Assembly (NCBI GenBank): GCA_016200255.1
Contig: JACQFA010000039.1
Location: forward strand, 13,678 to 77,677
DNA length: 64,000 bases
Direction: 5' to 3'
Origin: Nitrospirota bacterium
GTDB lineage: Bacteria; Nitrospirota; Nitrospiria; JACQBZ01
In this document: positions 3,781 through 61,343 of the stretch, one piece after another
Position numbering within the stretch: position 1 is the first letter of the stretch
Layout: the number at the start of each line of letters is the position of its first letter
Notes under the pieces: model-generated
Told to the model about the DNA's origin: nothing
What the model saw: the letters and a program-made list of their open reading frames with translations, nothing else
The model's database searches: none
Made by a program: the position numbers and the translations under genes

Positions 3781-3880
3781 CCCAGCGAGTAAAACGAGCG
3801 AGAGGGGGAGGCTCCATCCGGCTTTATCGGCCTGCACTCGGCGGTTTGCAGCCGATGTGTGGAGGGGGCGACGCGAGCCC
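3781..3880. repeat. Dispersed intergenic repeat, copy A (carries an extra internal hairpin), immediately upstream of the yggX RBS
   Basis: ccagcgagtaaaacgagcgagagggggaggctccatccggct...ggagggggcgacgcgagcccct matches 60641-60718 over about 65 nt. Copy A carries a 37-nt insert that forms the hairpin atcggcctgca/tgcagccgat. Confidence 0.7.
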
Positions 3881-9896: not shown

Positions 9897-11846
9897 ATGA
9901 CTCAACCAACCATTGAATCGGTGTTGAGAGAGCGACGCGTCTTCAAGCCCCGCGCCGCTTTCAGCCGATGGGCCCACATCAAGAGTATGAAGGAATACAA
10001 AAAACTCGCCCAGGTGGCCGAGTCCAAACCGGAAGTCTTCTGGGGAAAGATCGCGGGCGAGCTCCACTGGTTTAAAAAATGGAAAAAAGTCCTTCAATGG
10101 GAGCCGCCTTTCGCCAGGTGGTTCGTGGGCGGGAAGATCAACATCGCCTACAACTGCATCGACCGCCACCTCCAGACCTGGCGACGGAACAAAGCCGCGA
10201 TCATCTGGGAAGGCGAGCCCGGCGACACCCGGGTCCTGACCTTCCAGGAACTTCATCGGGAGGTCTGCAAGTTTGCCAACGTGCTGAAGCGGCTGGGCGC
10301 CCGGAGCGGCGATCGCGTCGCGATCTACATGCCGATGATCCCGGAGCTGCCGATCGCAATGCTGGCCTGCGCTCGGATCGGGGCGACCCACAGTATCATC
10401 TTCGGCGGATTTTCGGCCGAGGCCTTGAAGGACCGGATCAACGACGCCAAGGCCAAACTCCTCGTCACGGCGGACGGCAGCTACCGCAAGGGTGCGGTCG
10501 TCCCGCTCAAGGAGAACGTGGACAAGGCCCTGTCCCAGACTCCCACCATCGAAAAAGTCGTGGTGGTCCGCCGCACCGGCTTGGCCATTCCCATGGAGTC
10601 GAACCGCGACCATTGGTGGCACGACGCCATGAAGGAGGCTTCGGCCGTCTGCGAGGCCGAGCCGCTCGATTCGGAGCATCCCCTCTTTATTCTTTACACC
10701 AGTGGGACTACCGGAAAACCCAAGGGGGTTGTACATTCCACAGCCGGATACCTCGTCCAGACCTATATCAGCAGCAAGTGGGTCTTCGACCTGAAGGACG
10801 AGGACACCTACTGGTGCACCGCCGACATCGGCTGGGTCACCGGCCACAGTTACATCGTTTATGGAATCCTCGCCAACGGGGCAACCTCCGTGATGTTCGA
10901 AGGCGCCCTGACGCATCCGGGCCCCGACCGGGGTTGGGAGATGATCGAAAAATATCGCGTGAATGTTTTCTACACCGCCCCGACTGCGATCCGGGCCCTG
11001 ATGAAGCTGGGAAACCAATGGCCCGAAAAACATGACTTGAGCAGCCTGCGTCTTTTGGGCACGGTTGGCGAGCCGATCAATCCCGAGGCCTGGATGTGGT
11101 ACAACACCGTGATCGGGAAAAACCGATGCCCGATCGTGGACACCTGGTGGCAGACCGAGACCGGGGCGATACTGATCACGCCGCTGCCCGGCGCGATCCC
11201 GACCAAACCCGGCTCGGCGACGCTGCCCTTCCCGGGCATTTCGGCCGATGTCGTCAACAAGGACGGCTCGCCGGTCGGACCGGATCAAGGCGGCTATCTC
11301 GTCATCAAAAAACCGTGGCCGGCGATGCTCCGGACGATTTACGGCGATCCGGAACGTTATCAATCCCAGTACTGGAGCTTCATCCCCGGTTGTTATTTTA
11401 CCGGAGACGGCGCCCGCCGCGACAAAGATGGTTATTACTGGGTGATGGGCCGCGTGGACGACGTGATCAATGTATCCGGCCATCGCCTCGGCACCATGGA
11501 AATCGAGAGCGCGCTGGTAAGCCATCCGACCGTGGCCGAGGCGGCCGTCGTTGGCAAACCGGACGACTTGAAAGGAACCGCGATCTCGGCCTTCGTGACG
11601 CTGAAAACCGGCAACACCCCTTCGGACTCGTTGAAAGAGGAGCTCCGCTCCCATGTCACGAAAGAGATCGGGGCAATCGCGAGGCCGGATGAGATCCGTT
11701 TCGCCGACAGTCTGCCCAAAACGCGCAGCGGGAAAATCATGCGACGGCTGCTACGGGATATCGCGTCCGGAAAAACGACCGTCGGCGACACCACGACGCT
11801 GGAAGATTACTCCGTCCTGACCAAACTGATGCAGGAAGAGGAATAG
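9897..11846 (+). CDS. acs: Acetyl-CoA synthetase (acetate--CoA ligase)
   Basis: 649 aa with an Acs-typical N-terminus, the AMP-binding motif [12 protein letters not shown], and the C-terminal [12 protein letters not shown]. Confidence 0.95.
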
Positions 11847-33449: not shown

Positions 33450-34082
33450 ATGATACCGCTGCAACAATTTTATGAAGAGATCAAGGATTGCCAGAAGTGC
33501 GGGTTATGCAAATCACGGACGCATGTGGTATTCGGGGAAGGGAACCCCCATGCCGAGATCATGTTCGTGGGCGAGGCTCCAGGTGAGAATGAAGACCTTC
33601 AAAACCGGCCGTTCATCGGCATGGCCGGAAAACTGCTCACGGATCTACTCGCAAGCATCGGAATGAAACGCGAGGACGTCTATATCGCCAATGTCGTCAA
33701 ATGCCGTCCGCCGGAGAACCGCAACCCCGCGCCGGATGAGATCGAGTCCTGCAAACCGTATTTATGGAAGCAGATCGAGATGATCAAGCCCCGTGTCGTC
33801 TGCACGCTCGGAAATTTCGCGGCCCAGGCGGTTCTGGATAAAAAAGTGGCGATCACCAAGGTTCGCGGCCAGCATCTCCAGGTCAAAAATTTTCTGGTTT
33901 TTCCCATGCTCCATCCCGCCGCCGCGCTTCACCAGGGGAACCTTCGCCCCGCCCTTTTGGAAGACTTCCAGAACCTGAAGAAATTTCTCGGCCAAGGAAT
34001 ACAGCCGGCACCGCAGCCCGAACAGACCAGTTTTTTCTACATCATCCCCGTACTTCATGAAAATCACACCCTCCATCCCTGA
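33450..34082 (+). CDS. Uracil-DNA glycosylase, family 4 (paralog 1)
   Basis: [36 protein letters not shown]...GMAGKLL...NVVKCRPP. The track ORF starts at an upstream GTG (33360). Family alignment favours the start at MIPLQQ. Confidence 0.85.
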   Translation: MIPLQQFYEEIKDCQKCGLCKSRTHVVFGEGNPHAEIMFVGEAPGENEDLQNRPFIGMAGKLLTDLLASIGMKREDVYIANVVKCRPPENRNPAPDEIESCKPYLWKQIEMIKPRVVCTLGNFAAQAVLDKKVAITKVRGQHLQVKNFLVFPMLHPAAALHQGNLRPALLEDFQNLKKFLGQGIQPAPQPEQTSFFYIIPVLHENHTLHP

Positions 34083-42295: not shown

Positions 42296-42658
42296 TTATT
42301 CCTTCACCTTGATGATATTGGCCAGCCGCTTCCCATCGCGCTCCAGATAGCTCACGGTCACTTCCGATTCCAGTCTCAATCCGTCCAGTCTCAGATGCTG
42401 GCGCCCCCGTTTAAGCTGAGTATCGGGAGTGATCACGAAACTCTGGTCCCCGTGCCGGCTCTTAAGACTCATCGTATGGCCCACCAGATCGACCTCCTTC
42501 ACCGTCCCGGTCATATGATGCAGCGAAGCCGTCTTCAACCGACCGTCGATAACGGGCCTGACCTCCAATGAACCGCTTGCCAGTTGCTGAGCCACCACCG
42601 TCCCGACCAGAAGAAAACTGACAAGACCGGATGCAAAAAACACAAACGCTCGATACAT
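42296..42658 (-). CDS. Small secreted protein (signal peptide)
   Basis: MYRAFVFFASGLVSFLLVGTVVAQQ; no identified domain. Confidence 0.5.
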   Translation of the reverse strand: MYRAFVFFASGLVSFLLVGTVVAQQLASGSLEVRPVIDGRLKTASLHHMTGTVKEVDLVGHTMSLKSRHGDQSFVITPDTQLKRGRQHLRLDGLRLESEVTVSYLERDGKRLANIIKVKE

Positions 42659-42889
42659 AATCCACCTCCTATGGTTGTTGGATCTTGTTGTTCATCCATC
42701 CCGTGCAGCAAGTCCATAGTGCAGAGTCCGTGCCAATGCATATTGAAGGGATAGAAGGGTGTCCACTTCATGAATTGTGCGATATATTCGAGGAGAAAAC
42801 AGGAAAGCAGAGACGGCAAGCGGAACGGATATGTCTCGTGATTCAGGTCGGCAGTCGGAATCATGCGTCAGCGTTCATAAGAAAATCCC

Positions 42890-42918
42890 TTGACACCATC
42901 CGACCCGTTTGGTAGCAT
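42890..42918 (+). promoter_or_regulatory. Sigma70-like promoter P1 (TTGACA-17-TAGCAT) upstream of the FecR-domain gene; duplicated at 44779-44807
   Basis: TTGACAccatccgacccgtttggTAGCAT. The same ~45-nt sequence occurs at 44770-44815 with 3 substitutions. Confidence 0.55.
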
Positions 42919-43031
42919 CGCGCGGACCGTCCGCACCTGTCGGTGACCGCCGACACCCGGCTGCGCAGATGCATACTTGATTCTTCCTCCCCATCGGGAT
43001 CATAATCTCCTTGGGTAAGGAGAACCTGACC

Positions 43032-44771
43032 GTGTCTGTGATCATCCGGGTGCTGGCCGTGCTGTTGTTGTTGAACCTGGCGAGCGTGTTTCCGCCACTG
43101 GCCTACGCAGAAGAAGAAACGTCCGACCCCTACGGAACGGTGCGGCTTTCCCGCATCAGCCTCATCGAGGGGGAGGTACTCCTTCAGCGGGGCGATGATG
43201 AAGAGTGGGTGGCGGCCTCCGTCAACATGCCGCTTCGCCCTCACGATAAACTCTGGGCGACCGACGACGCTCGTGCCGAAATCCAGTTTGACGACGGGAC
43301 CGCGGTTCGCCTTGCCGAAAATTCCAATCTGGACCTCGTAAGCCTGGAGCCGGACTGGATCCATCTCCAGCTCACATTGGGCGTGGCCAGTTTCGCGGCC
43401 CGGGCCTCTTTCCGCGCGGGCGCGCGCCAGCCCTTTCTCGAGATCGACACCCCGCAGGCCACGGCCCAGGTCACTCGTTCGACGGCGTTTCGGGTGGATG
43501 TGGCGGAGGACGGTTCAACCGTCATCACGGTCCGTGACGGTGAGGTGGAACTGAGCCGCGATGAGGAGCCGATCATGATCGCCGCCGATCAACGCGTCGC
43601 GATCGAGGGAGGCGACTCCCCGGACTATCTATTGGAAGCGGCCGAGCCGCCGGATGACTGGGACCGATGGAATAAAGATCGCGATACCCAACGGGCCCGG
43701 GCCGCGGACCATGAGCATCTCCCCTCCGGTACCGAGATGGGGGTGACGGAGTTGAATACCTACGGCAACTGGAATCAGGTCCAGACCTACGGCTGGGTTT
43801 GGATCCCCCAAGTGACCGCGGGTTGGACTCCCTATCATATCGGCCGATGGGTCTGGATGGAGCCGTGGGGCTGGACCTGGGTCTCCTACGAACCATGGGG
43901 TTGGCTCCCCTATCACTATGGCCGGTGGGTCATGGTCGGAGGCAGGGGATGGGTCTGGGTGCCGGGTCCGACTCTTGGAATTTGGACGCCAGGCTGTGTT
44001 CGATTTTTTTATGGGCCGAACTGGGTGGGCTGGGTGCCGCTCGGACCGGGCGAGGTCTACTATTACTATCCCGGCGCTTCCGTGAATATCGATATCAACC
44101 TCGTCAACTATCCTGTCCCGGGGGCGGCGATCGTGATGTCCCGGCGTCGCTTCGTCACGGGCCTGCCGGAGGAAGAAAGGTTTATTCCGCCCAAAGATCC
44201 GATTCGGGCCGGGCGGGTGGCGGTCGGTCCGCCGCCGGTCGTGCCGACACGCGCCAGCCTGCATCCCGCGCCCGAGACAGCGGTCCCGGCGGATCGGCTT
44301 CCGCCCCAAACGATCCATCGCCCGGTGGTCTATACCCGCACCCCGCCGGCTCCGCCGCCCCTCTTCGAGAACCGGGTAAAGGAAATTCAGGGCGTCGTCA
44401 CGCAAGGCCGTCCCCCCGCCGCGCCCTCGCTTCCGGAGAAAGGTGTACCGGGTGCCGAAGAGCGTCGCGCCGCAAGCGGGAAAATCCGCAAAGACATCAC
44501 GGTCAGGAAAATGATCGCACCCTCTACGCTCTCGACCTTTCCAAACCGGACGCCGCGCCCGCCGGAGGAGCGCGCCGCGCCGAGTCATGAAGCCAAGAAA
44601 AGGCAACCCTCTCCTCCCAAGAACGTTAAGTTGGCGAGGACACCTTCGGAACCCTCCGCTCCGCAAACATTGGAGGGACGAACACAACAAGGCCGGCCCC
44701 TCTATCGGAAGCCGCCATCCAACCCCGCCCCCGCGGTTGTTCCTCCCCCCCAAGGCGACGGATCGCACTAA
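43032..44771 (+). CDS. FecR-domain secreted protein with a Trp-rich repeat region and a Pro-rich C-terminal tail
   Basis: An N-terminal signal peptide, then FecR-like VRLSRISLIEGEVLLQRGDDEEW...AEIQFDDGTAVRLAENS. The middle reads WVWIPQVTAGWTPYHIGRWVWMEPWGWTWVSYEPWGWLPYHYGRWV and the C-terminal 200 aa are Pro/Ala-rich. The start was chosen at the GTG after an AAGGAG RBS; the track ORF begins at a TTG at 43011. Confidence 0.65.
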   Translation: MSVIIRVLAVLLLLNLASVFPPLAYAEEETSDPYGTVRLSRISLIEGEVLLQRGDDEEWVAASVNMPLRPHDKLWATDDARAEIQFDDGTAVRLAENSNLDLVSLEPDWIHLQLTLGVASFAARASFRAGARQPFLEIDTPQATAQVTRSTAFRVDVAEDGSTVITVRDGEVELSRDEEPIMIAADQRVAIEGGDSPDYLLEAAEPPDDWDRWNKDRDTQRARAADHEHLPSGTEMGVTELNTYGNWNQVQTYGWVWIPQVTAGWTPYHIGRWVWMEPWGWTWVSYEPWGWLPYHYGRWVMVGGRGWVWVPGPTLGIWTPGCVRFFYGPNWVGWVPLGPGEVYYYYPGASVNIDINLVNYPVPGAAIVMSRRRFVTGLPEEERFIPPKDPIRAGRVAVGPPPVVPTRASLHPAPETAVPADRLPPQTIHRPVVYTRTPPAPPPLFENRVKEIQGVVTQGRPPAAPSLPEKGVPGAEERRAASGKIRKDITVRKMIAPSTLSTFPNRTPRPPEERAAPSHEAKKRQPSPPKNVKLARTPSEPSAPQTLEGRTQQGRPLYRKPPSNPAPAVVPPPQGDGSH

Positions 44772-44778
44772 AAATTTC

Positions 44779-44807
44779 TTGACACCTTCCGACCCGTTTG
44801 ATAGCAT
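44779..44807 (+). promoter_or_regulatory. Promoter P2, a duplicate of P1 (TTGACA-17-TAGCAT), at the left edge of a lower-GC island
   Basis: TTGACAccttccgacccgtttgaTAGCAT, followed by about 300 nt with no convincing ORF before the gene at 45125. Confidence 0.5.
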
Positions 44808-45124
44808 CGCGCCGTCTGAAGCATCCAGTCCGTTTTTTATAGTTTAACGTTGCTGCGCACCACATCGGCCGAGACGGGCATGCCACTGCCCGATCCGAGC
44901 GGTCGAGGGAGATTACGTCCCCCGGCTTCAAAACCGATCACGCTTTTTCGCACCTTGCCCCCAATTGAATTCTATCCGGACATGGGCCTCAAGTTCACCT
45001 CAATCGTCTTTGGGCTTGTTTTAAATTTTTCGAAGGTCAAAAACCCTTTTCCAATTCCAAGATCTGTAGTTTGATTTTCTGAAGGAATTGGCTTATCCTT
45101 TTATGGGTTCAAAAACAAATCATT

Positions 45125-46141
45125 TTGGACAACGTAACAAGACCTGCCTTGCTAACGATAGAACATAAAAAAATGACACCTGTCCGCCTTCGCCCAAATG
45201 TGCCAATAAAATTAGCCCAGGTCGCTGCGGATCTTGAACCGTACACGGGTCGATGGCATGTGTTCCTCTTAAGGCCCCCACGTTTTCATGGATGCCTTAC
45301 TGACTTCTTGCAAGGGCATCCCGATTTTCAGAAGCGCTTTCTGCCGAGATCTCAAAGAGCCGTTACGCTCCTAAATCGGCTTCTTGGCGATAGAGGCAAG
45401 TTTATTCCTCCAAGCACGACGACAAGATCTAAACGGATATATGGTTCCGTTGGGCTCGTCGTCGATCGTGCGGCGATCCATTTGATCGGCGAGGACGTCA
45501 TGGTTAGGCCTAGGAGTTATCTGCAACAAGGAAAAACAAAGAAAAGGATTCTCAAGGCTCTTGAATACCAATCCCGGCGAGAGTCACCTGGATGTCTCAG
45601 CCCAGAGCGTCCAGAGACTCTGGGTTGGTTATGGGTTCTCGGCAATCTTGAGCCCGTATTTCGCGGCTTTCGCCCGCTCTCAGACATTGACGGCGCCGCG
45701 CTGGGGTCGGCACCCGTCACCCCACGAAGCGCCATGCGTTGGCTGGCCAATCTGGTGACCGAGGACCTCGCCAGCGAACTGACCGCACTCATTCGTTCCC
45801 TCGCTTGCATTATTCCGAAGGGCCCCTATCGCTCGAATCCGATCTTTGGCGGCTATGGTTTTGTCATCGGCTCCGATGGGGATTTCATGGCCGGTCACAC
45901 GCTCGTCGAGATCAAGTGCTCTGTCTCGGGTGTCAGGAGAAATTCCGTGTCACAGATGCTATCGTATTTCGCAATCGATCGACTCAACCATGGGACCCAT
46001 GGCTATGGAGTACGTCAACTGGCACTCTGTCTACCGAGGCAGCAAGCGACTATCATCGGAACGGTCGATGAATGGTTGAGCTTCTTCGGCGGCCCATCTC
46101 CAAAACGCTTTATAGCCATGTTCGCAGAATATGTGAAATAA
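45125..46141 (+). CDS. Hypothetical protein with a possible C-terminal PD-(D/E)xK nuclease-like motif
   Basis: GC (~50%) and codon usage are lower than in the surrounding genes. The C-terminal GYGFVIGSDGDFMAGHTLVEIKCS fits a D...E-x-K motif. The start is ambiguous (45125, or the internal ATG at about 45173). Confidence 0.4.
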   Translation: MDNVTRPALLTIEHKKMTPVRLRPNVPIKLAQVAADLEPYTGRWHVFLLRPPRFHGCLTDFLQGHPDFQKRFLPRSQRAVTLLNRLLGDRGKFIPPSTTTRSKRIYGSVGLVVDRAAIHLIGEDVMVRPRSYLQQGKTKKRILKALEYQSRRESPGCLSPERPETLGWLWVLGNLEPVFRGFRPLSDIDGAALGSAPVTPRSAMRWLANLVTEDLASELTALIRSLACIIPKGPYRSNPIFGGYGFVIGSDGDFMAGHTLVEIKCSVSGVRRNSVSQMLSYFAIDRLNHGTHGYGVRQLALCLPRQQATIIGTVDEWLSFFGGPSPKRFIAMFAEYVK

Positions 46142-46268
46142 TCTCATGACACAAATTTCTTGGTCAGATTTCTATAGAGGTTCTAAAACAGTTCATTTTG
46201 AACCATGTGCTGGATTGTAAAGATGGCTAATGTTCTCGCCACAATTTGAATCTGAAATCAAAAAGGTT

Positions 46269-46287
46269 TTTGACACAGCTGTGTCAA
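46269..46287. promoter_or_regulatory. Perfect 18-bp palindrome TTGACACAG|CTGTGTCAA upstream of the NHL-repeat gene
   Basis: Exact inverted repeat centred on CAGCTG in an AT-rich intergenic region, about 80 nt upstream of the ATG at 46366. Confidence 0.5.
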
Positions 46288-46365
46288 AGAGTCAAAAATG
46301 AACCGTATCGGGTTTAAGTAGAGAAATAGCTAACAGGGTTTCCGATGTACACGGGAGGCCTTTGC

Positions 46366-47340
46366 ATGAACTACAAAGCTAAATTGACTAAAGGACTTCG
46401 TAGTGCAGGGTTGCTGGGCTGGTTGCTTGCCTTGGGATTATTGTATGGCTCTGGTGGGGAAAGTGCTGGTGGTAGTAGCGGTGCCACACCGCAGATCTAC
46501 GTGGCAGACGTTTTCAACCACCGGATCGTGCGGATCAATGACATGACCGGTGCGGGCTGGACCACTCTCGGCACCGAAGGCAACGGGGCCAACCAGTTTC
46601 GCAATCCTGACGGCATTTTTGTAGATGCGGCCGGGAAGATCTACGTGGCAGACTCTTTTAACAACCGGATCGTGCGGGTCGATGACATGACCGGTGCGGG
46701 CTGGACTACATTCGGCACCGTTGGCGCTGGGACCAATCAGTTTTCCAAGCCAACTGGCATCTTTGTCGACACAGCCGGGAAGATCTATGTGACAGACTTT
46801 GTCAGAATCGTGCGGGTCGATGACATGACCGGCACGGGCTGGACTACATTCGGCACCGTTGGCGCTGGGACCAACCAGTTTCATAATCCTGGCGGCATTT
46901 TTGTAGATGCGGCCGGGAAGATCTACGTGGCAGACTCTTTTAACAACCGGATCGTGCGGGTCGATGACATGACCGGCGCGGGTTGGACTACATTTGGTGC
47001 CTCCGGCAATAGGTCCAACCAGCTTAGCGGTCCGGAGGGCATCTTTGTGGATGCAGCCGGGAAGATCTACGTGGCAGACCCCGACAACCACCGCATTGTA
47101 CGGATGAATGACATGACCGGCGCGGGTTGGACCACTCTCGGCACCCCTGGCAGCGGGACAAACCAATTTAGATACCCGTTTGGCATTTCTATAGACACGG
47201 CCGGGAAGATCTACGTGGCAGATGAAAGCAACCGTATTGTGCGGATGAATGACATGACCGGTGCGGGTTGGATCACACTCGGCACCCCTGGCAGCGTGAC
47301 AAATCAATTTCACGTTGCAAGGAACATCTTTATCCGATAG
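46366..47340 (+). CDS. NHL-repeat (six-bladed beta-propeller) protein with signal peptide
   Basis: Repeats of ...GKIYVADSFNNRIVRVDDMTGAGWTTFGT.G.G.NQF..P.GIFVD.A...; N-terminal hydrophobic segment LLGWLLALGLL. One repeat is shortened (KIYVTDFVRIVRVDD). Confidence 0.75.
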   Translation: MNYKAKLTKGLRSAGLLGWLLALGLLYGSGGESAGGSSGATPQIYVADVFNHRIVRINDMTGAGWTTLGTEGNGANQFRNPDGIFVDAAGKIYVADSFNNRIVRVDDMTGAGWTTFGTVGAGTNQFSKPTGIFVDTAGKIYVTDFVRIVRVDDMTGTGWTTFGTVGAGTNQFHNPGGIFVDAAGKIYVADSFNNRIVRVDDMTGAGWTTFGASGNRSNQLSGPEGIFVDAAGKIYVADPDNHRIVRMNDMTGAGWTTLGTPGSGTNQFRYPFGISIDTAGKIYVADESNRIVRMNDMTGAGWITLGTPGSVTNQFHVARNIFIR

Positions 47341-47522
47341 CTTCAGGATTGAAGAAATTCTTTGTGCTCATTTTGTGCTCAAGCCCGCCACTCTCAGGCC
47401 TATTCCAGCCCACTCCAGCCAATTTAGTCTTCCAGTATAATTCTTTGACAGAGTTGGTTTTAGTTGGATAGAATGGGCCAGAGTAGGCAACACTGTGCTA
47501 AAATTGCGATTAAATTATTCGA

Positions 47523-47804
47523 GTGGATTCGAAAATGATGCACAAACCAATCCGAATTCTCTCAGTCACTTTCTTCGTGCTCCTGATTTTGACGTATAGC
47601 CAGGGAGCCGGAGCCGAGCAACAACCTAAATTTACAATCGAGACTCTTCCGGGCGATAAGGGGCCCATCGTTTCTAAAGGCCGAGGGTCAGGTCTTGCAA
47701 TCACGCATCGAGAAACCAACCGATTGCTGAATTCAGAACTTGCCTCGCATGCGCGCGCGGGTAAAAGGAACACTATATTCGATCCTGCATCATTATATAT
47801 ATAG
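47523..47804 (+). CDS. Small secreted protein (93 aa, signal peptide)
   Basis: MDSKMMHKPIRILSVTFFVLLILTYSQGAGA. It is preceded by TTGACA-17-ATAGAAT at about 47447-47480. Confidence 0.4.
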   Translation: MDSKMMHKPIRILSVTFFVLLILTYSQGAGAEQQPKFTIETLPGDKGPIVSKGRGSGLAITHRETNRLLNSELASHARAGKRNTIFDPASLYI

Positions 47805-47935
47805 GCCGCAGAGTGGTCTTGCCACTGTGCTATCGGTCGAGTCCTCAGGCGTCAAAGACCCGGCCCAGAACGAAATAATTAAGTATGGTGTCCCCGGAAT
47901 TTAAGACGGTTCCACGGGAGATAGGCCAATCTTTG

Positions 47936-48364
47936 TCAAGGCGTCCCTTCCGAGCCATTTTGAGAAGGTTGTTGAACCTCTGCACATTCTAGTGAGGCGT
48001 AAACTGGATCGGGATCTAAGTAGTAAGCCCCACCACTCACCAAATCAATAACCGTTCCAACAAAAAACCCCACAAAAAGGAATGGGATGAGATTGGCGAA
48101 CACGATAGGTGAATTATAGCTAAATACCAATACCTGCTTTCGTTCACATCCTGTTTTGTTAAATTCAACTAATGCGCTTTTTCCCCGAGGCAGATCCCTT
48201 TTAACAGGCGTTTTTCCAATCGCTGCGCCATCAACGCTTACTTCTGCTCCTTCGGGATGGGAATTAAAAAGGACTTCTTGTTTGCTGCCATGGATAAGCG
48301 TTCCGTAAGCACATCCATTTAAAATCATTGCCACAAGTACTATATAGGCAATTAATCTTTTCAT
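47936..48364 (-). CDS. PEGA-domain lipoprotein
   Basis: Lipobox MKRLIAYIVLVAMILNGC, and a PEGA-like VSVDGAAIGKTPVKRDLPRGKSALVEFNKTGCERKQVLVF. The locus is lower in GC (~45%). Confidence 0.55.
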   Translation of the reverse strand: MKRLIAYIVLVAMILNGCAYGTLIHGSKQEVLFNSHPEGAEVSVDGAAIGKTPVKRDLPRGKSALVEFNKTGCERKQVLVFSYNSPIVFANLIPFLFVGFFVGTVIDLVSGGAYYLDPDPVYASLECAEVQQPSQNGSEGTP

Positions 48365-48407
48365 GTCTTCACCCACTAAATGCAAATACTTGCTCGCTGA
48401 ACGTAAC

Positions 48408-50630
48408 CTAAAGAAGAAGTAGTCCGGCCTCACGGACGGCCTTCCACTCCCTGCTTTTTAAAAATGTTCCAAACGATTTTTTCGACTTGGCAGGGCAGCG
48501 CCGGGCCGCCTCCGCGAGTTTCAAGTAAGCGGCGCCTTTTCGGCCGCGCGGCTGAGACTCTTTTAAGATCGACTGAAGCCACTCGGCGATTAACGGCTCG
48601 ACTCGGATTTTGCGATCCTCTCCCCGGCCGGGGAGGAATAGAGAGGACCCCTTTGAAATCGACGGAACGCCGCCGAGCCAGACCAGCCTCCGTTCCAGAT
48701 CGTCTCGATAAGAAGGCGCGGCCGCCAGCGCGGTCGTGATGAGGTTCCGCGAGACCTTCGGTTTGGAAAGGGGGGAATCAAAAAAAGTCCGGACGTCGAC
48801 GTCTAATTTGACCCCGTGCATGTAGTTGTAGATCGCCTTGGCGAGTCCTGGCCCGAATCGTTCCGGATCGCTTCCGGTTGGATCGACATGGGTCAGATCG
48901 TTGTTCGCGAAGCGGCCGGGGGCGGGGCCGGTGATCTCGATTCCGTACGCGCCGGGGTTGAGACCGACGGGGCTGTGCCGTGTGGCCGTGAACCGATGCC
49001 AGAAGGCGGAATGGAGTATCCCGGCTTCAAAGAGTTGCCGCACCCGCTCCAGACTTGCTATCGTCTCCACGGCCGTCTCGGTCGGAAATCCGTACATCAG
49101 GTAGGCATGGACCATGATCCCGGCTTCGGTAAAAGCATGCGCGACGCGTGCAACCTGCGCGACGGTGATCCCTTTTTCCATCAGGGCGAGAAGACGGTCG
49201 GAGGCGACCTCCATCCCGCCGGTGACGGCGATGCAGCCGGAGGCGGCCAGCAGACGGCAGAGGTCGGGCGTGAAGGCCTCTTCGAACCGGATATTCCCCC
49301 ACCAGGAAATCGCGCGGCCCCGGTCCAGCAGCTCCAGCGCCAGATCGGCCAGGCGCGATGGCGGCGCGGCCTCGTCCACAAAATGAAACCCCGTCTCTCC
49401 GGTCTCTTCGATCAGGATGTCGATCCGGTCGGCCAATAGCGTCGCCGGCGTCGGCTCGTAGCGCTGGATATAATCGAGCCCGATGTCGCAGAAGGCGCAT
49501 TTTTTCCAGTAACAGCCGTGCGCCACGGTCAGCTTGTTCCAGCGGCCATCCGACCAGAGCCGATGCATCGGGTTGAGCATCTCGACCAGCGACAGGTACG
49601 ATCGAAGCGGAAGGCCGCGATAGGTGGGCGTCCCGGTCTCGGCAAAGGGAACTTCCTGCTCCGGCGCGGTATTGATGTACTGAACCTTGCCATCGCGTCG
49701 CAGGAAGGTCCGGCACAGCCGCCCCATCTCCGGTTCATCGAAGGATTCCAAGAGGGCGAGGAGGGGCCGCTCTCCGGCGTCGAGTGTGACATAGTCCACA
49801 TAATCGAAGAGACGCGGCTCGGCGAGTTCACGCAGCTCGGTATTGACGTAGCCTCCTCCGAGCGCGATTTTGACGCCGGGATACCGCCGGCGGATGAAAG
49901 CGGCCGAGCGGAGCGCACCGTAAAGATTTCCGGGGAAGGGAATCGTGATCCCGACGAGATGAGGCTTGACCGTTTTCATCTGTCGATCCAGGACTTCTTC
50001 CAACATCCGGTCGATCAGGCCGGGCGGATCTTTAAGCGCCTGGTCGAGCGGATCGAAGGAGGTCGCGGAGGCCGCAAGACGCTCGGCATAACGGCTGAGC
50101 CCGAAGCGGGGATCGACCGTCGCCTGGATGAGGTCGGCCAGATCGTCCAGATATAGGGAGGCGAGATGTTTGGCCCGGTCGGTCAGGCCGAGGCTTCCGA
50201 AGGCCCAAAGATCGTCGTCCAGTTTTGAAAAACGGGGCCCTTCCGGCAAAAACCGGCGACGGCTTATCTGGGTCGCCCAGGAAGGATCATTTCCCTGGAG
50301 AAACCGGATCACCGGATCGATCGTGTCGAGGTAACGATCCCTCAATGAGACGGCCCGCTCAATCACCGGGTCGGACGTCCGAGTCCGCGCCCGGCTCGAA
50401 TCAATCGCCTCAAAAAGGCGGGCCAGCCCCGGACCGGAAAAAAGCGCCAGAAACGTTTCGATTCCCAGATCGGCCTGGAAGACTGTCTCGGTTTTGGATT
50501 GAAGATAACCGGTCAGATAGGCCGTCGCGGGATACGGGGTGTTCAACTGGGTGAAGGGAGGGGTCAGGAGAAGGAGGCGCGGCATGACGGAACGCGACGG
50601 AAAAGCGTCAGTAACCGCCGGGGCTGCCAT
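48408..50630 (-). CDS. B12-binding-domain radical SAM protein (740 aa)
   Basis: N-terminal B12-binding-like (...VKIALGGGYVNTELREL...) and the radical SAM CxxxCxxC motif VAHGCYWKKCAFC; large C-terminal region of unknown function. Confidence 0.7.
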   Translation of the reverse strand: MAAPAVTDAFPSRSVMPRLLLLTPPFTQLNTPYPATAYLTGYLQSKTETVFQADLGIETFLALFSGPGLARLFEAIDSSRARTRTSDPVIERAVSLRDRYLDTIDPVIRFLQGNDPSWATQISRRRFLPEGPRFSKLDDDLWAFGSLGLTDRAKHLASLYLDDLADLIQATVDPRFGLSRYAERLAASATSFDPLDQALKDPPGLIDRMLEEVLDRQMKTVKPHLVGITIPFPGNLYGALRSAAFIRRRYPGVKIALGGGYVNTELRELAEPRLFDYVDYVTLDAGERPLLALLESFDEPEMGRLCRTFLRRDGKVQYINTAPEQEVPFAETGTPTYRGLPLRSYLSLVEMLNPMHRLWSDGRWNKLTVAHGCYWKKCAFCDIGLDYIQRYEPTPATLLADRIDILIEETGETGFHFVDEAAPPSRLADLALELLDRGRAISWWGNIRFEEAFTPDLCRLLAASGCIAVTGGMEVASDRLLALMEKGITVAQVARVAHAFTEAGIMVHAYLMYGFPTETAVETIASLERVRQLFEAGILHSAFWHRFTATRHSPVGLNPGAYGIEITGPAPGRFANNDLTHVDPTGSDPERFGPGLAKAIYNYMHGVKLDVDVRTFFDSPLSKPKVSRNLITTALAAAPSYRDDLERRLVWLGGVPSISKGSSLFLPGRGEDRKIRVEPLIAEWLQSILKESQPRGRKGAAYLKLAEAARRCPAKSKKSFGTFLKSREWKAVREAGLLLL

Positions 50631-50802
50631 GCCGGTCTTCCTCGCGCTTCAGGTCCTGCATCCCCTTGTCGGAGTCCTGTTTGATCTTGTCCTGATCCGG
50701 CCGCTCGGGCGGCGACGAGGCGCAGCCGACAAGTCCCAACGTCAGCGCCGTGGCAAGAACAGCCGGGAACAGGATCCCCTTTTTGAATAAATCGTTCTTC
50801 AT
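50608..50802 (-). CDS. Small lipoprotein (64 aa)
   Basis: Lipobox LTLGLVGCASS; overlaps the upstream gene's 3' end. Confidence 0.45.
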   Translation of the reverse strand: MKNDLFKKGILFPAVLATALTLGLVGCASSPPERPDQDKIKQDSDKGMQDLKREEDRHGSPGGY

Positions 50803-51863
50803 TTTTCTTCCTTTCCATAGATGAATTCGGCGATCTGGCGGCCGACTTCCTCCGTCACTTCCTGCCCGGCCGCGCGAAGCGCGCGGGCCTCGGCCTCGGA
50901 AGCGGTCAGATGCCCTTCGCGCCCCTGCCGCGTCATGCTCCCGATCACCTGCTGCGTCGCCCGGTCGGTGAGATCAATGGCCGCCGTCCATCGGACGAAC
51001 CGCGTCGGGGGCGATCCGCCCGCGGGCATCTGGACCGGCTCAAAGGTCACGGCGCCTTTGACCGTCAAATCGGGCTGCAGATCGGGCGCGGCGGAACCGG
51101 CCGGCACGACGGGCAGCCCCTGCCGGTTCAATCCCTCGACGATCGCGGCCCGCATCTCATTGTTGTGCGGACCGCCGACCTCGACCACGATCTTGAAATT
51201 TTGGGCCAGGAACTGGCGCAGGTCCTGACTGATCACGGCCAGGCTGACCATGCTCTCGGAGCCTTTTCCGGTGGGACTGACGACCCGGAGCTCCGTGTTA
51301 TAGGCGTCCCGCAGCAATAAATTCTCGACCGTCGAATGAAACGCCCTCACGGTTTTCAGTTTGTCTCCGGACTGCCGGGCCTGCTTCAGCCGCTCTTCGA
51401 TTTGAAGATCCAGCGAGGTGATCCGGTCTCTCAAGGACGAGGCGGCATGCTGCCGGTCCATCACGGCCAGCGCATAGTAGACCGCCTTGGACTCGTCCAT
51501 CCATCTCTCCGCGATGCTCACGTTCTCCAACACTTTTTTGGTCGAGACCTGCGTCACCTGCTCGATGTTGATCTGCCGGCTGTCCTCCGATCGTACCTTG
51601 GAATCCGACTGGAGATATTTTTCCCATTCCTGCGTCTTGGAATTGATCTCGGCCGTGAAGATTTTTGAAACCGCGGCGTAGGCCCGGTCCTCGGCCGCCT
51701 GACGGGTGTCCGCATAGCCGACGCCGGTCAGGTACAGCGCTTCCGGATATTTTTTGCTCGATCCGTTGACCCAATCCGGAGAACCTGCCGCGATAACCGG
51801 GGAAGAAACGCCGATCCATACGATCAGTCCGGCAGCCACGATGCTTAAAACACTTTTTTTCAT
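50799..51863 (-). CDS. LPP20-domain periplasmic protein (signal peptide)
   Basis: MKKSVLSIVAAGLIVWIGVSSPVIAAG...YLTGVGYADTRQAAEDRAYAAVSKIFTAEI LPP20-like N-terminal domain. Confidence 0.55.
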   Translation of the reverse strand: MKKSVLSIVAAGLIVWIGVSSPVIAAGSPDWVNGSSKKYPEALYLTGVGYADTRQAAEDRAYAAVSKIFTAEINSKTQEWEKYLQSDSKVRSEDSRQINIEQVTQVSTKKVLENVSIAERWMDESKAVYYALAVMDRQHAASSLRDRITSLDLQIEERLKQARQSGDKLKTVRAFHSTVENLLLRDAYNTELRVVSPTGKGSESMVSLAVISQDLRQFLAQNFKIVVEVGGPHNNEMRAAIVEGLNRQGLPVVPAGSAAPDLQPDLTVKGAVTFEPVQMPAGGSPPTRFVRWTAAIDLTDRATQQVIGSMTRQGREGHLTASEAEARALRAAGQEVTEEVGRQIAEFIYGKEEK

Positions 51864-51887
51864 CCTGTCTCCACCATCCAATTTGTT

Positions 51888-53246
51888 TTATTGCGGCCCA
51901 AGGACCCGGTACCCCAAAAACCGTTTCTCTCCGGCCTTCAGCGTCATGGCCGGAAATGTTTTCCGTTCGATCAAGCCGTCCGTGGTATCGTAATACTCGA
52001 CGGCAACCGTGTACGTTCCCGGAGGAACGGCCAGCCGGGCCAATTGAATCTGCCCCGGCAGCGTGCGCCAGCTCCGCTTGTCCGTTTGCTCCGTAGCCAC
52101 GGCGGCCACGTTGGCCAGGAGACCGGCCACCGGCCCGCCCTTCTTTTCAGCCTCCCGCGTCGCCTGATACTTGACCACGGCCCTCGCAATCGACTTGGCC
52201 GTGATCCGGGCGATGCGGTCCTCCAGGTTTTTCTTGGCAATCGCCGTGACGTCCTCGGCCAAAAAGGTCCGTTGGGAAACGGCCCCGCCCGAACCGGCCG
52301 CCGGGATCAGATGCACCTCGGCCGTCTTGACCTTGTTGGACCGCGGCACGAACTTCGGAAGGGCCACGCGAAGAACATACACGCCGCCCTTCTTTTCCGG
52401 GATCGGCGCCTCGATGAAAAAATCTTCCTTGATCGGCGATCGGCCGGTATAACTGACGAAGACCAGTTCGCTCTGGCCTTTCAATTCCTTCTCGGTCGTC
52501 CAGCGCGCGCTCGGAAATTGCTTGAGGTAGTCCTGATGCTCTTCCTCCAGGTGGAGTGCCGCCGTTACCCGCAAGAGATCGGCCGGAAGCGTCGGCGGCA
52601 TCGGCGTGCCGTAGTTCTTTCGATAATCGCCGTAGGCTTCATAGGCCTTGCGATACGAGATAAAGGCGTCGTTCAGTTCGCCCTTCGCCTCGAACAGGAT
52701 CCCGCTCAGATACTGGGCCAACGCATCCTGTTTATAGACATTCTTTTTTTCATACTTGTCGTTAAACAGATTGAGTTTATGATCCACCTTTCGGGCCTCG
52801 ACCAGCGCCTCGTCCCATTGTCCGAGATAACCGTAGTTGAGCGCCGCGATCACGTTGATCATGACCTTTTCGAAATCCTCCCCTTCGTACGGCAGGGCAT
52901 TGTCGTTGGTCAGCATGGCGCCGGCCCCGGCCGCGACGCTCTGGGTGTAGAGTTCGTCGATCCGGTTCTCGGCCTGGGTCAGGGATTGATTGCTCTCGTT
53001 GTACTGCCCGGCCAGATGAAGCATCATGCCCCGATCGAAATCGTATAAGACGGCATTGCGGTCGCCGTAGTCGGACTGGTGCTTCACGATCACGGCGTCG
53101 GCCTCGGCGAACTGCTGCCGGGACTGGAGGTTGTCCACGAGGATGTAATGGTGCACACCCGGCCCGCAGCCCGACAGGACCAGCAAACCGACGAGGACAG
53201 GAATCGACAACCATGTTTGCATCACGCCCCGATGGATGGATGTCAT
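51888..53246 (-). CDS. Lipoprotein with TPR-like helical region (452 aa)
   Basis: Lipobox LVLSGCGP. The central region is helical-repeat-like with no family assignment. Confidence 0.5.
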   Translation of the reverse strand: MTSIHRGVMQTWLSIPVLVGLLVLSGCGPGVHHYILVDNLQSRQQFAEADAVIVKHQSDYGDRNAVLYDFDRGMMLHLAGQYNESNQSLTQAENRIDELYTQSVAAGAGAMLTNDNALPYEGEDFEKVMINVIAALNYGYLGQWDEALVEARKVDHKLNLFNDKYEKKNVYKQDALAQYLSGILFEAKGELNDAFISYRKAYEAYGDYRKNYGTPMPPTLPADLLRVTAALHLEEEHQDYLKQFPSARWTTEKELKGQSELVFVSYTGRSPIKEDFFIEAPIPEKKGGVYVLRVALPKFVPRSNKVKTAEVHLIPAAGSGGAVSQRTFLAEDVTAIAKKNLEDRIARITAKSIARAVVKYQATREAEKKGGPVAGLLANVAAVATEQTDKRSWRTLPGQIQLARLAVPPGTYTVAVEYYDTTDGLIERKTFPAMTLKAGEKRFLGYRVLGPQ

Positions 53247-53248
53247 GG

Positions 53249-53890
53249 TTAGAATCCGAAACGGCTCTTCTCGACCACCTTCTTGATTTTTTTCTGCCCG
53301 GCCCAGACCTTCAGGTTCTTCTCCATATCAAAGAACTCCAGGTCCACCTGGTAGTAAACAACCTTGGTCCCCTTGGACTCGTCCAGAATCGAATTGATCG
53401 TGCCCTTGAGCATGTAGTCGGCCCCGATCTCCTTGCCCAGGCCCTTGGCCGTTTCCTGGGATGACTGGGACTGTTGATCCTGCCGCTCCTCACGGACCTC
53501 GTCACGCTCGGACTTCGACGCCACGAACTGGACCCGGCCGTCGTTCGTCAGTTCGCGCTCCAGGTCCTTGGTAAAGGTCTGTACGTTGATATGTTCCGTA
53601 CTCCGGTTCATCACGGTCCCGACGATCACGGTCGGGGTCTTGCCGGAATGCTGCTTGCCGAATTTATCAAGCCAGGGACGGGACAGCACGTCCTTGATCA
53701 TCTCCTCGGCCACCATCCGGGAATCGGCGTCGTTCCACCGGCCCGACAGATCGATCGTCGTATCGGCTCCGACCCGCTCCACTTTCGTTGTCGCGCAACC
53801 CGCCGCCCCGACCAGCAACAGGATCAACAGGGTTCCGGTCAGCGACATCGGAATCATTTCAAAAACGTTTTTCAAAGACATTCGTCTCAT
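53249..53890 (-). CDS. LpoB-like lipoprotein (PBP-activator LpoB/COG3417 family)
   Basis: Lipobox LLVGAAGC. VIVGTVMNRSTEHINVQTFTKDLERELTNDGRVQFV...GADYMLKGTINSI...YQVDLEFFDMEKNLKVWAG matches the LpoB pattern LLVDSVNNRTNGSLNA...LRNALANNGKFTLV...GAHYVLYSSASGN. It is the same length as E. coli LpoB (213 aa). Confidence 0.6.
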   Translation of the reverse strand: MRRMSLKNVFEMIPMSLTGTLLILLLVGAAGCATTKVERVGADTTIDLSGRWNDADSRMVAEEMIKDVLSRPWLDKFGKQHSGKTPTVIVGTVMNRSTEHINVQTFTKDLERELTNDGRVQFVASKSERDEVREERQDQQSQSSQETAKGLGKEIGADYMLKGTINSILDESKGTKVVYYQVDLEFFDMEKNLKVWAGQKKIKKVVEKSRFGF

Positions 53891-53921
53891 CGGTTCTCTC
53901 CTTCATACATTAAAAAAATCC

Positions 53922-54923
53922 CTATCGAAATTTTCCCCGCATCTCTTTCATCAGGTCTTCCATTTCCTTCATCCGGTCCGCGATCAGCCGGTCCAGATCG
54001 TACGGACGTTTCTCGGTCAGAATCTGAACCGCCGGTTTTTCCTCTTGGGCCGGCTTCTTCGAACCAGACGGAGGACTCTTGGGCGCGGCTTCCGATTTTT
54101 GAACCGGCGTGACCGGTTTATCCACGGCCGGAGGAGGTGACGGAGCCGGCGCCGATGACACCGGCGGCTTTGTCGGTGATTCGTACGGAACGGCCACGCC
54201 CTGCGTCGCCAGCCACTGCCGGGCGACGCTGGATTTGACCGCAAAATTGATTGAAGTAATCGTCAGCCCGTCGGCCGCCTTCCGGGAGATCATCGTATTC
54301 ACGCCCACCATGGCCCCCCGCCCGTCCAGCAGAGGTCCGCCGGAATTGCCGCGGTTCAGGCTGGTCTCGGTCTGAAAAATATCCTTTCCCTTCACGCCGT
54401 TGAAATTCTCGATCTCGGCGCTGATCGTCCCCGTGGTCAGGGTCCAGAGCCCGCCGGTTTCCGGATGTCCGATCGCCACGACCGGATCCCCGATCGCGAC
54501 CTGATCGGGATCTCCCAGAGACACGACCGTCAGACCTGCCGGCGGATTTTCCATCCGAAGCAACGCCATGTCCAGGGCCGCATCGTAGCCCAGAAGCTTC
54601 GCCTCGACACGTCGGGTCAGGTCCTTGTCCATGTTGCCGGTCACACGGTCCGGTTTTAAAAACAGGCTGACATGGCGATACGGCCGGTTCGTTTCCTTGT
54701 TGATCACGACATGGGCGTTCGTAATCACCAGCCCGTCGGTCCGGATGATCGAGCCGGTCCCCCCGCTGCCCATGCGGCCGTCATCGCTGGCCAGTATCAG
54801 GACCACCCCCGGCCCGATGCTCTGATAGATCTCCTTCGGACTATTGGCCCATGCGGCAGTCGCACAAAACACGACGACCGCCAAAAACAGAAGGCCGGTT
54901 TCTATGCAAACGCTCCGCTTCAT
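53922..54923 (-). CDS. Trypsin-like (S1) serine protease, secreted, with a Pro-rich C-terminal tail
   Basis: Catalytic triad context TNAHVV...D...GNSGGPLLD; signal peptide; no PDZ domain. Confidence 0.8.
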   Translation of the reverse strand: MKRSVCIETGLLFLAVVVFCATAAWANSPKEIYQSIGPGVVLILASDDGRMGSGGTGSIIRTDGLVITNAHVVINKETNRPYRHVSLFLKPDRVTGNMDKDLTRRVEAKLLGYDAALDMALLRMENPPAGLTVVSLGDPDQVAIGDPVVAIGHPETGGLWTLTTGTISAEIENFNGVKGKDIFQTETSLNRGNSGGPLLDGRGAMVGVNTMISRKAADGLTITSINFAVKSSVARQWLATQGVAVPYESPTKPPVSSAPAPSPPPAVDKPVTPVQKSEAAPKSPPSGSKKPAQEEKPAVQILTEKRPYDLDRLIADRMKEMEDLMKEMRGKFR

Positions 54924-60540: not shown

Positions 60541-61343
60541 TGGATAAAGAATCCGCACGCATCGTCCTCGACAACCTCAGGACCTACATTCAGATGTACC
60601 GGGAATGGGGATTGGAGGGGATAAGCGTAAACCTGAACATCGAAAAACCAGCGAGCAAAGCGAGCGAAAGGGGGAGGCTCCATCCGGCTGTGCCGGTGGA
60701 GGGGGCGACGCGAGCCCCTATGATAATATCAAAATCCGCCGCGCTCGCCGCCCTTCGAACCGAGATCGGCGACTGCACGCGGTGCAAACTGCACACCGGC
60801 CGGACCCATCTCGTGTTCGGGACGGGCGACCCGGAAGCTGGACTGATGTTCGTGGGCGAAGCGCCGGGCGAGGATGAAGACCGGCAGGGCCTGCCCTTTG
60901 TGGGCAAGGCCGGACAGCTCCTCACCCGCATCATCGAGGCGATGGGACTCAAACGGGAGAGCGTTTATATCGCGAACATCATCAAATGCCGTCCGCCCCG
61001 CAACCGGAATCCGGAGCCGGATGAAATCGCCTCCTGCTCCCCGTTCATCCAACGGCAGATCGAGATCCTGCGGCCCAAGGTGGTCTGCGCGCTGGGAAGC
61101 TTCGCGGCCCGGACCCTTCTGGGCACGGGACAAAAGATCTCGCAGCTCCGCGGACGATTTCATGATCTGCCGATCCTGTCGTCCGACGGCTCCACGGCCG
61201 GGATCAAGGTCATGCCGACCTTTCATCCGGCTTACCTGCTGAGAAACCCGGACGATAAAAAACGGGTCTGGGAGGACATGAAAATGATCATGCGTGAACT
61301 GAATCTGCCTGCGCGGACGGCCGGAAGCGGGGCGCCCCCATGA
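60537..61343 (+). CDS. Uracil-DNA glycosylase, family 4 (paralog 2)
   Basis: [38 protein letters not shown]...GKAGQLL...NIIKCRPP. The longest ORF starts at 60537, but the first 61 codons contain the dispersed repeat, so an alternative start at 60720 ([12 protein letters not shown]) is plausible. Confidence 0.8.
60641..60718. repeat. Dispersed repeat, copy B (short form), in the 5' leader / N-terminal extension of the second UDG gene
   Basis: ccagcgagcaaagcgagcgaaagggggaggctccatccggctgtgccggtggagggggcgacgcgagcccct matches 3782-3876. It ends in the hairpin GGGGC-gacgcga-GCCCC, which lies 2 nt before an in-frame ATG (60720). Confidence 0.7.

Follow-up and report, generated by a model that had tools for sequence, protein, structure and literature searches.

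The stretch analysed here, a 64-kb window of a Nitrospirota genome (GenBank assembly GCA_016200255.1, contig JACQFA010000039.1, positions 13,678 to 77,677), carries a gene for a FecR-domain protein that is bracketed by two copies of a 42-nt promoter-like direct repeat. The copies, R1 (42882-42923) and R2 (44771-44812), both lie on the + strand, are identical at 38 of 42 positions and are spaced 1889 nt apart with FecR as the single gene in between; R2 and the FecR stop codon (TAA, 44769-44771) overlap by one base. In R1 the -35 hexamer TTGACA (42890-42895) is followed by a 17-nt spacer, TGG and the -10 hexamer TAGCAT (42913-42918), with a predicted transcription start near 42925; the corresponding positions in R2 are 44779-44784, 44802-44807 and about 44814. 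Each copy agrees with TTGACA-17-TATAAT at 10 of 12 positions, and in both the hexamers are 17 bp apart with a TG one base 5' of the -10; such a TG and a spacing of 17 +/- 1 bp are features by which sigma-70 promoters of the extended -10 type are recognized. A previous sequence-only reading of this DNA had described a promoter repeat on either side of the FecR-domain gene, each copy with TTGACA and TAGCAT at 17-bp spacing, and both the positions and the near-consensus sigma-70 character of the pair are confirmed; its count of three substitutions has to be raised to four, namely CC>TT immediately 5' of the -35 hexamer, one A>T change within the spacer and, at the n of TGn, G>A. Across the window, a 35-nt degenerate pattern with up to three mismatches found R1 and R2 only (0 expected from 100 shuffles), and a search with a 22-nt core again recovered these two copies, with none in the shuffles.

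The FecR gene (43032-44771, + strand) encodes 579 amino acids from a GTG start, preceded by an AAGGAG ribosome-binding site at 43017-43022, and combines a FecR domain (PF04773, 5e-14) with DUF6600 (PF20245, 2e-29). Its product is 100% identical to a 579-aa database protein from a Nitrospirae metagenome-assembled genome (P0001). A proximal promoter-like site, TTGATT-18-CATAAT at 42977-43006 (+ strand), lies 54 nt 3' of R1, and its hexamers are invariant in six genomes in which FecR is 72-84% identical, which indicates that FecR has a conserved promoter of its own to which R1 would be an addition. No copy of R was found upstream of FecR in five relatives (loci L001, L003, L004, L008 and L066), all of which retain TTGATT-18-CATAAT. 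In L001 (GCA_016194285.1), the closest relative, FecR is 84% identical, is preceded by MoxR-DUF58-TgpA genes and is followed 115 nt 3' by a radical SAM gene. TgpA-FecR or FecR-TPR adjacency is seen in L004/L005, L008 and L066/L069 as well, and in L003 two additional genes separate TgpA from FecR. After FecR, at the position of R2, L001 retains a single decayed R (11803-11844, AAAACTCCTCGACACCTTCCGACCCG), followed by a GTCC(C/G)TTTTTT run. A scan for the R core in 185,579 GTDB species representatives gave Nitrospirota matches on the L001 contig only, the other 44 being chance matches in GC-rich taxa. The decayed L001 orthologue places R2 as ancestral at the 3' flank of FecR, and since relatives have no R 5' of FecR, the comparison identifies R1 as the derived copy. 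R1 and R2 are the closest pair found, yet R2 matches L065b, a family promoter in another genome, at 37 of 42 positions. Because 38/42 barely exceeds this value, R1 and R2 would both belong to a promoter subtype that evolves slowly and would not be the outcome of a recent duplication.

R2 is not a promoter in isolation. It heads a module of about 165 nt in which the promoter is followed first by a variable linker (about 40 nt) and then by a conserved hairpin motif of 84 nt. In the window the linker spans 44813-44851 (+ strand), with a T-run GTCCGTTTTTT in common with L001, and the hairpin, which starts 44 nt after the -10 of R2, spans 44852-44935 (+ strand) and holds the near-invariant core TGCCCGATCCGAnCGGTCGAG (window copy TGCCCGATCCGAGCGGTCGAG); a hairpin with this core 29-47 nt 3' of the -10 is what defines a module. 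A relaxed scan of the retrieved loci recovered R-like sites elsewhere on the relatives' contigs, each with a variable linker and the conserved segment behind it. A first metagenome scan with the strict R pattern gave no match; with the core TGCCCGATCCGANCGGTCGAG as query, 10 loci were obtained, of which six are real and four are chance occurrences inside genes of unrelated GC-rich organisms. R-like promoters with the conserved downstream motif are now known from L004, L008, L063, L065, L066/L069, L067 and L071. The family comprises at least 13 modules in six metagenomic loci besides the window. We built a covariance model (CM R1) from 10 hairpin copies and searched it in the window and the retrieved loci, obtaining 12 distinct strong matches (82-106 bits) and three divergent ones (30-36 bits). 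One of these hairpins is in the window (84.2 bits, E 9e-22), two are in L004, two in L008 (= L071), four in L065, three in L066 (= L069), two in L063 and one in L067; three orthologous copies make up the divergent subtype. Within each locus the hairpins share one orientation and are spaced 0.8-1.8 kb apart.

The promoter nearly always accompanies the hairpin. TTGACA (once TTGAAA), a spacer of 17 or 18 nt and TAGCAT, TAACAT or TAGACT are located 29-47 nt 5' of 12 of the 13 distinct hairpins. Across the family, mean pairwise identity is 96-97% in the -35 and 88% in the -10, compared with 44-52% in the first 14 spacer positions and 43-44% in the upstream flank; a set of 11 family promoters gave 0.97, 0.885, 0.52 and 0.43, respectively. 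Functional promoters would be expected to show such a contrast between the hexamers and the bases around them. The form CTTGACAC...TAGCAT is essentially restricted to the modules and R1 in the roughly 220 kb of loci covered. Modules sit shortly after the preceding stop codon and 60-440 nt 5' of a co-oriented open reading frame (ORF), and the ORFs that follow them are mutually unrelated, encoding 23S_rRNA_IVP four-helix-bundle, OMP-like (244 or 262 aa), 91-93 aa, 170 aa, TPR and PD-(D/E)XK-like proteins. In L004, L008, L066 and L069 the module arrays are found a few kb downstream of the orthologous FecR. Neither the pattern nor the covariance model revealed further copies in the window beyond R1 and R2, and the model found no hairpin after R1. 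A decayed hairpin was considered there and rejected, the local alignment of 42924-42962 to the module being no better than those of shuffled sequences (310/500). The sequence-only reading had offered membership in a larger, genome-wide repeat as grounds for abandoning its view; the repeat does belong to a wider family, but one that is lineage-specific and apparently locus-specific, the 19-nt R core occurring once in the L001 genome. Plasmid and phage collections held no match to 44771-45172, and viral contigs gave a single chance match (L072).

A side observation concerns the two conserved parts of the module. The promoter spacer contains a semi-conserved CGAYCCGTTTG (44790-44800 in the window) and CGATCCGAACGG is present in the main-type hairpin (CGATCCGAGCGG at 44890-44901 of the window); in some copies, such as L008a, spacer and hairpin share the 7-mer CGATCCG about 100 nt apart; the R2 spacer of the window reads CGACCCG. 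This recurrence may be chance, or it may represent two sites for one DNA-binding protein.

RNAalifold predicts three stacked helices in the hairpin, GCGC/GUGC, UCGACC/GGUCGA and CGGGCA/UGCCCG, and the apical loop alone varies freely. The divergent subtype has two compensatory pairs in the apical helix, and in an alignment read by eye an alternative 8-bp helix, CGCGUUCG/CGAACGCG, takes the place of UCGACC/GGUCGA. A small ORF in the leader or hairpin was ruled out: each of the three frames is interrupted, the hairpin core does not vary at any codon position, and the changes in the apical loop would be non-synonymous. Long-range pairing between the transcript 5' end (CCGUUCG) and the hairpin (CGAACGG) was also dropped, as by eye it is not kept in the window and in several other copies. 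The motif matches no Rfam family. With Rfam 15 the window gave nothing at gathering scores, the interval 44760-45180 gave noise only at E<=10 (ceN82, CRISPR-DR21), and L067 and L063 gave no match at E<=1, three non-window copies being without a match overall; no tRNA or tmRNA is present in the window, and the literature search returned no match for the literal core sequence or for DUF6600. Orphan 5'-leader and riboswitch candidates in Rfam resemble the modules in that a conserved stem-loop, variable in its apical loop, occurs in a long 5' leader and keeps a constant distance to a promoter; the modules differ from them in matching no Rfam 15 family, in the lack of a common metabolic theme among the downstream genes and in their weak covariation.

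The R2 module opens onto a leader of about 360 nt, the AT-rich remainder of which (44936-45172, + strand) is homologous to the sequence 3' of module L008b. In a blastn comparison, window positions 44770-45121 align collinearly with L008 18873-19195, at 68% identity over 352 nt of non-coding sequence, and the L008b copy continues into an IS3 element. Six frames were examined between 44813 and 45172 without revealing a convincing ORF, in agreement with the sequence-only reading, which had noted about 300 nt of this kind after the second repeat and had proposed a long leader, a small RNA or the remnant of an event that brought in the downstream island. The first of these proposals can be retained, as a long non-coding leader that holds a conserved structured motif; the remnant is very doubtful. 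No terminator-like site (a GC-rich hairpin with a T-run) was found on the + strand between 44813 and 45172, and folding of the whole leader gave a z-score of -0.99, so its stability is not special. With no terminator in between, R2 most likely drives the first gene after it, which extends from 45173 to 46141 (+ strand) and encodes 322 aa with a PD-(D/E)XK-nuclease-like C-terminal part (PADLOC RTasPDDEXK, 6e-15). Its start at the ATG at 45173 is supported by homologues of 310-318 aa and a common GGTTCAAAAACAAAT box; the public annotation of 45125-46141 (P0135) covers the C-terminal 219 aa only. The homologues are found beside genes for a DNA methyltransferase, a MazE/PIN pair or MksEF. The gene after R2 showed no homology to the genes after FecR in L004 and L008, which encode TPR proteins.

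The absence of a terminator also bears on the idea that promoter and hairpin form an independent small-RNA gene family, with the downstream genes as mere neighbours and R1 as a dead or orphan promoter. A strong promoter in front of a short (about 120 nt), conserved and structured segment would suit such a family, and so would downstream genes that are unrelated to one another. In the window, though, no intrinsic terminator follows the hairpin, and across the family the next ORF is always co-oriented and the post-hairpin tail co-varies with the type of downstream gene, for which reasons we find small-RNA genes an improbable explanation.

Beyond the PD-(D/E)XK-like gene, the segment absent from L001 (44840-48407, the island of the sequence-only reading) continues with genes for an NHL-repeat secreted protein (46345-47340, + strand; Pfam NHL, 1e-27), a secreted protein of 93 aa and a PEGA-domain lipoprotein (47936-48364, - strand, ATG at 48364; Pfam PEGA, 2e-6), the 93-aa ORF being located between the other two. 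The NHL-repeat gene is absent from all related loci examined. The G+C content of the island is 0.50, lower than in the window as a whole (0.57) and in the flanking genes (0.61-0.64). Next to the island is the B12-binding radical SAM gene (48408-50585, - strand), whose product shares 90% amino-acid identity with that of L001. DNA homology between the two is limited to 48409-50594, that is, from the stop codon to 9 nt 5' of the ATG at 50585, as in a gene-sized and almost flankless relocation; the gene begins 23 nt past the stop of a 62-aa gene in the window, and the program-listed ORF start at 50630 is probably wrong. Two further details were seen in the island. A perfect 20-nt palindrome, TTTGACACAGCTGTGTCAAA, occupies 46269-46288 in the AT-rich gap 5' of the NHL gene and overlaps a promoter-like site at 46270. 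An 86-nt non-coding stretch (47373-47457) is 73% identical to positions 6448-6532 of L058, an unrelated contig on which the PD-(D/E)XK-like gene likewise has its homologue; the window stretch overlaps a TTGACA-18-TAGAAT site (47445-47474) ahead of the 93-aa ORF.

The model suggested by the sequence-only reading is one local duplication of the 42-nt promoter, made when an insertion or duplication introduced the island (44830-48400). Under such a model the copies could be att-like repeats, target-site repeats or the relic of a tandem leader-FecR-R arrangement. The reading proposed checking whether related genomes lack the island and have a single promoter copy, and in L001 44840-48407 is indeed absent and R is present once, in decayed form; the island nevertheless lies outside the repeat pair, with no R at its far end. 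Direct repeats 1889 nt apart that flank one gene, the deviating base composition of the island and the closeness of R1 to R2 all speak for a local duplication. We nonetheless hold it to be very doubtful. L001 has the R2 orthologue without the island, so the island cannot have created R2. What lies between the repeats is not an insert but a conserved core gene; this, together with the lack of a recombinase in the Pfam-scanned 39.7-51.9 kb, also sets the pair apart from the att repeats of integrative elements, FecR alone lying between R1 and R2 and being present in all relatives. Moreover, 42 nt exceeds the size of target-site duplications, and the near-identical promoter of L065b and the family of modules place the pair in a wider context than one event at this locus.

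Rearrangement has repeatedly affected the modules themselves. Module L066b is a mosaic with the promoter and tail of one module type and the linker and hairpin of another; L004 and L066 differ by the insertion or deletion of a sulfatase gene, the right breakpoint of which coincides exactly with the hairpin 5' edge; L008b and L065b agree from an OMP gene through promoter and linker to ~60 nt into the hairpin and then diverge; the L001 copy ends within the linker, at the radical SAM stop codon; and R1 is cut on the left at the A-tract and on the right at the predicted transcription start. Since these breakpoints fall at differing positions, homologous recombination or gene conversion in conserved segments is favoured over a single site-specific crossover, and the scatter appears to fit the former better than one crossover point.

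The same observations can be read as traces of DNA recombination sites that delimit cassettes in an integron- or Xer-like manner, with R1 and R2 bounding a FecR cassette and the promoter as a passenger. Co-oriented arrays in which modules abut the preceding stop codon, insertion/deletion and gene-swap breakpoints at or inside the hairpin, the L066b mosaic, the transfer of single genes with minimal flanks (the radical SAM gene, from its stop codon to 9 nt 5' of its ATG) and a hairpin that is invariant in loops as well as stems, the apical loop alone being free, are all in line with such sites. We consider them unlikely, seeing that no tyrosine or serine recombinase is encoded in the Pfam-scanned 39.7-51.9 kb or appears among the genes listed for the array loci (where an IS3 transposase in L008 is the one candidate), that the breakpoints are scattered over the hairpin 5' edge, its 3' third, the linker and the promoter edges, and that R1 has no hairpin altogether. 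The attC boxes R'' (RYYYAAC) and R' (GTTRRRY) are likewise absent on either strand from 12 of 13 modules. Integron cassette arrays and CALINs consist of co-oriented unrelated small genes separated by an attC imperfect hairpin after each ORF (PMC4889954), and the module arrays resemble them in being co-oriented, in having a hairpin after each ORF and in a gene content that varies between relatives. They differ in lacking R''/R' boxes and, among the genes of 39.7-51.9 kb, L004 and L008, an integrase; integron cassettes are mostly promoterless whereas 12 of 13 module units carry their own promoter, and attC conservation is one of structure only whereas the sequence of the module hairpin is highly conserved. 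Correia elements of Neisseria (PMC2649163) and the pneumococcal BOX and RUP elements (PMC3049150) are short, multi-copy and intergenic and can supply promoters, fold into RNA hairpins and change the expression of adjacent genes. The modules are likewise short, multi-copy and intergenic; unlike these elements, they have no terminal inverted repeats (in the window, L008 and L004 no such repeats join the module ends, internal hairpin arms being the only ones), are strictly oriented to the downstream gene and are confined to one-locus arrays.

The left edge of R1 coincides with a larger discontinuity. The region 5' of a 120-aa exported-protein gene (42296-42658, - strand) is conserved over 42659-42884 (- strand) and aligns with L054, L055 and L056, the last being a second contig of the L001 genome, until 42884, after which the sequences diverge; its right end ...CGTTCATAAGAAA forms a synteny breakpoint (42884/5) that coincides exactly with the left edge of R1. 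The genes left of R1 (120-aa, rhodanese, DJ-1, HAD, MerR, ParA and others) are syntenic with the same three contigs. In L056 a 413-nt intergenic region separates the 120-aa gene from a 62-aa gene, which is followed by LPP20, a 471-aa gene, LpoB and a trypsin-like gene, and these five genes correspond to 50609-54923 of the window, so that the window has about 7.7 kb (42885-50608) where L056 has intergenic DNA only. Two remnants of the L056 intergenic region between the 62-aa and 120-aa genes survive at 47774-47803 (collinear, 27/28 matching) and 47877-47904 (inverted, 26/28 matching), which indicates that the present arrangement took more than one event. The remnants separate the FecR-side genes from the PEGA and radical SAM side, and the 7.7-kb insert is thus composite.

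Some other observations were made around this junction and elsewhere in the window. About 220 nt of non-coding sequence 5' of the 120-aa gene (42659-42881, - strand) are 76-81% identical in L054, L055 and L056, like the adjacent genes; this conserved stretch has no match in Rfam and could represent either a regulatory RNA or a long 5' untranslated region (UTR). In the place of R1 and FecR, L054 (1389-1747) and L055 (1985-2343), both on the - strand, have a Kelch/Big_5 gene that is accompanied by a short hairpin and by a perfect TTGACA-17-TATAAT promoter, and from these comparisons the site adjoining the 120-aa gene looks like a recurrent insertion point. Farther away, a 49-nt direct repeat, 88% identical, occurs at 3782-3830 and 60648-60696, its copies 57 kb apart, and three collinear blocks of 71-76% identity link 33516-33837 with 60801-61122 at a constant offset of 27,285 nt, these blocks probably being a paralogous gene pair.

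Given this evidence, we think it likely that R1 and R2 both belong to one lineage-specific family, the promoters of which are strong and of the sigma-70 type, R2 as part of a module in the variable region downstream of FecR and R1 as a promoter-only member. In this explanation the family promoter would consist of an A-tract, CTTGACAC, a 17-nt spacer and TGnTAGCAT. R2 would be a complete module in the ancestral 3' flank of FecR, and its transcript, starting at about 44814, would carry the hairpin within its first ~120 nt, traverse the ~360-nt leader and reach the PD-(D/E)XK-like gene, with the NHL gene probably included. R1 would represent the promoter part alone, ending at the predicted start and joined there to the FecR leader, where the FecR segment meets a neighbourhood other than the MoxR-DUF58-TgpA operon of the relatives, and may have arisen by recombination or gene conversion among modules. 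FecR, having lost its upstream operon partners, would thereby have acquired a second promoter 54 nt 5' of the native one, with a 5' UTR of about 107 nt. E. coli-type tandem P1/P2 sigma-70 promoters with an extended -10 (TGn) offer a basis for comparison, as do paralogous promoter-leader regions that recur ahead of different genes. The tandem promoters share the consensus -35, the 17-bp spacing, the TGn and a TAnnnT -10, and R1 5' of the native promoter resembles a P1/P2 arrangement; the present case differs in that all 42 nt recur, including part of the spacer (CGAYCCGTTTG), coupled to a hairpin at a fixed distance, and in that the promoters are predicted ones.

The preferred reading of the hairpin is that of a 5'-leader RNA element, and the pair as a whole points to a candidate regulatory or recombination module and not to a one-off duplication. 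Several points weigh against these views. The main-type hairpin copies are too similar to one another to show covariation, the compensatory pairs of the divergent subtype amount to about one evolutionary event and are suggestive at that level, and the folding z-scores, at -0.4 to -1.9, are unremarkable; the motif may have its role at the DNA level. The four substitutions between R1 and R2 avoid all 14 key promoter positions, but this would happen by chance with p = 0.18, and we infer the promoter activity of R1, R2 and the modules from sequence and comparative conservation. All family members come from one syntenic neighbourhood. In view of the 38/42 and 37/42 identities, R1 need not derive from R2 itself, and the intergenic remnants between the FecR and radical SAM sides do not fit a single translocation of a FecR-radical SAM block. 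A more far-reaching proposal, which we advance tentatively and with some doubt, is that the module is an undescribed device of this Nitrospirota clade, either a ligand- or protein-responsive class of 5'-leader RNA that would bring an array of unrelated envelope- and defence-type genes under common control, or a promoter-carrying recombination site that would assemble and reshuffle single-gene cassettes beside FecR/DUF6600, in the manner of an integron but lacking both attC and an integron integrase. In either case R1-FecR-R2 would represent a FecR gene captured into such an array.

The matching promoter pair marks a family of promoter-plus-hairpin units in uncultivated groundwater and soil Nitrospirota, units that head variable genes and coincide with rearrangement breakpoints. 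At this locus, R1 explains where a second promoter of the relocated FecR/DUF6600 gene could have come from, and the gene start corrected against the public annotation gives the PD-(D/E)XK-like gene 322 aa instead of 219. For a phylum in which genetics is almost absent, the family also provides a concrete candidate consensus of strong promoters. A role of the hairpin in RNA would make it a new leader motif whose target genes are already at hand, and a role in DNA would make it a new route to building expressed gene arrays.

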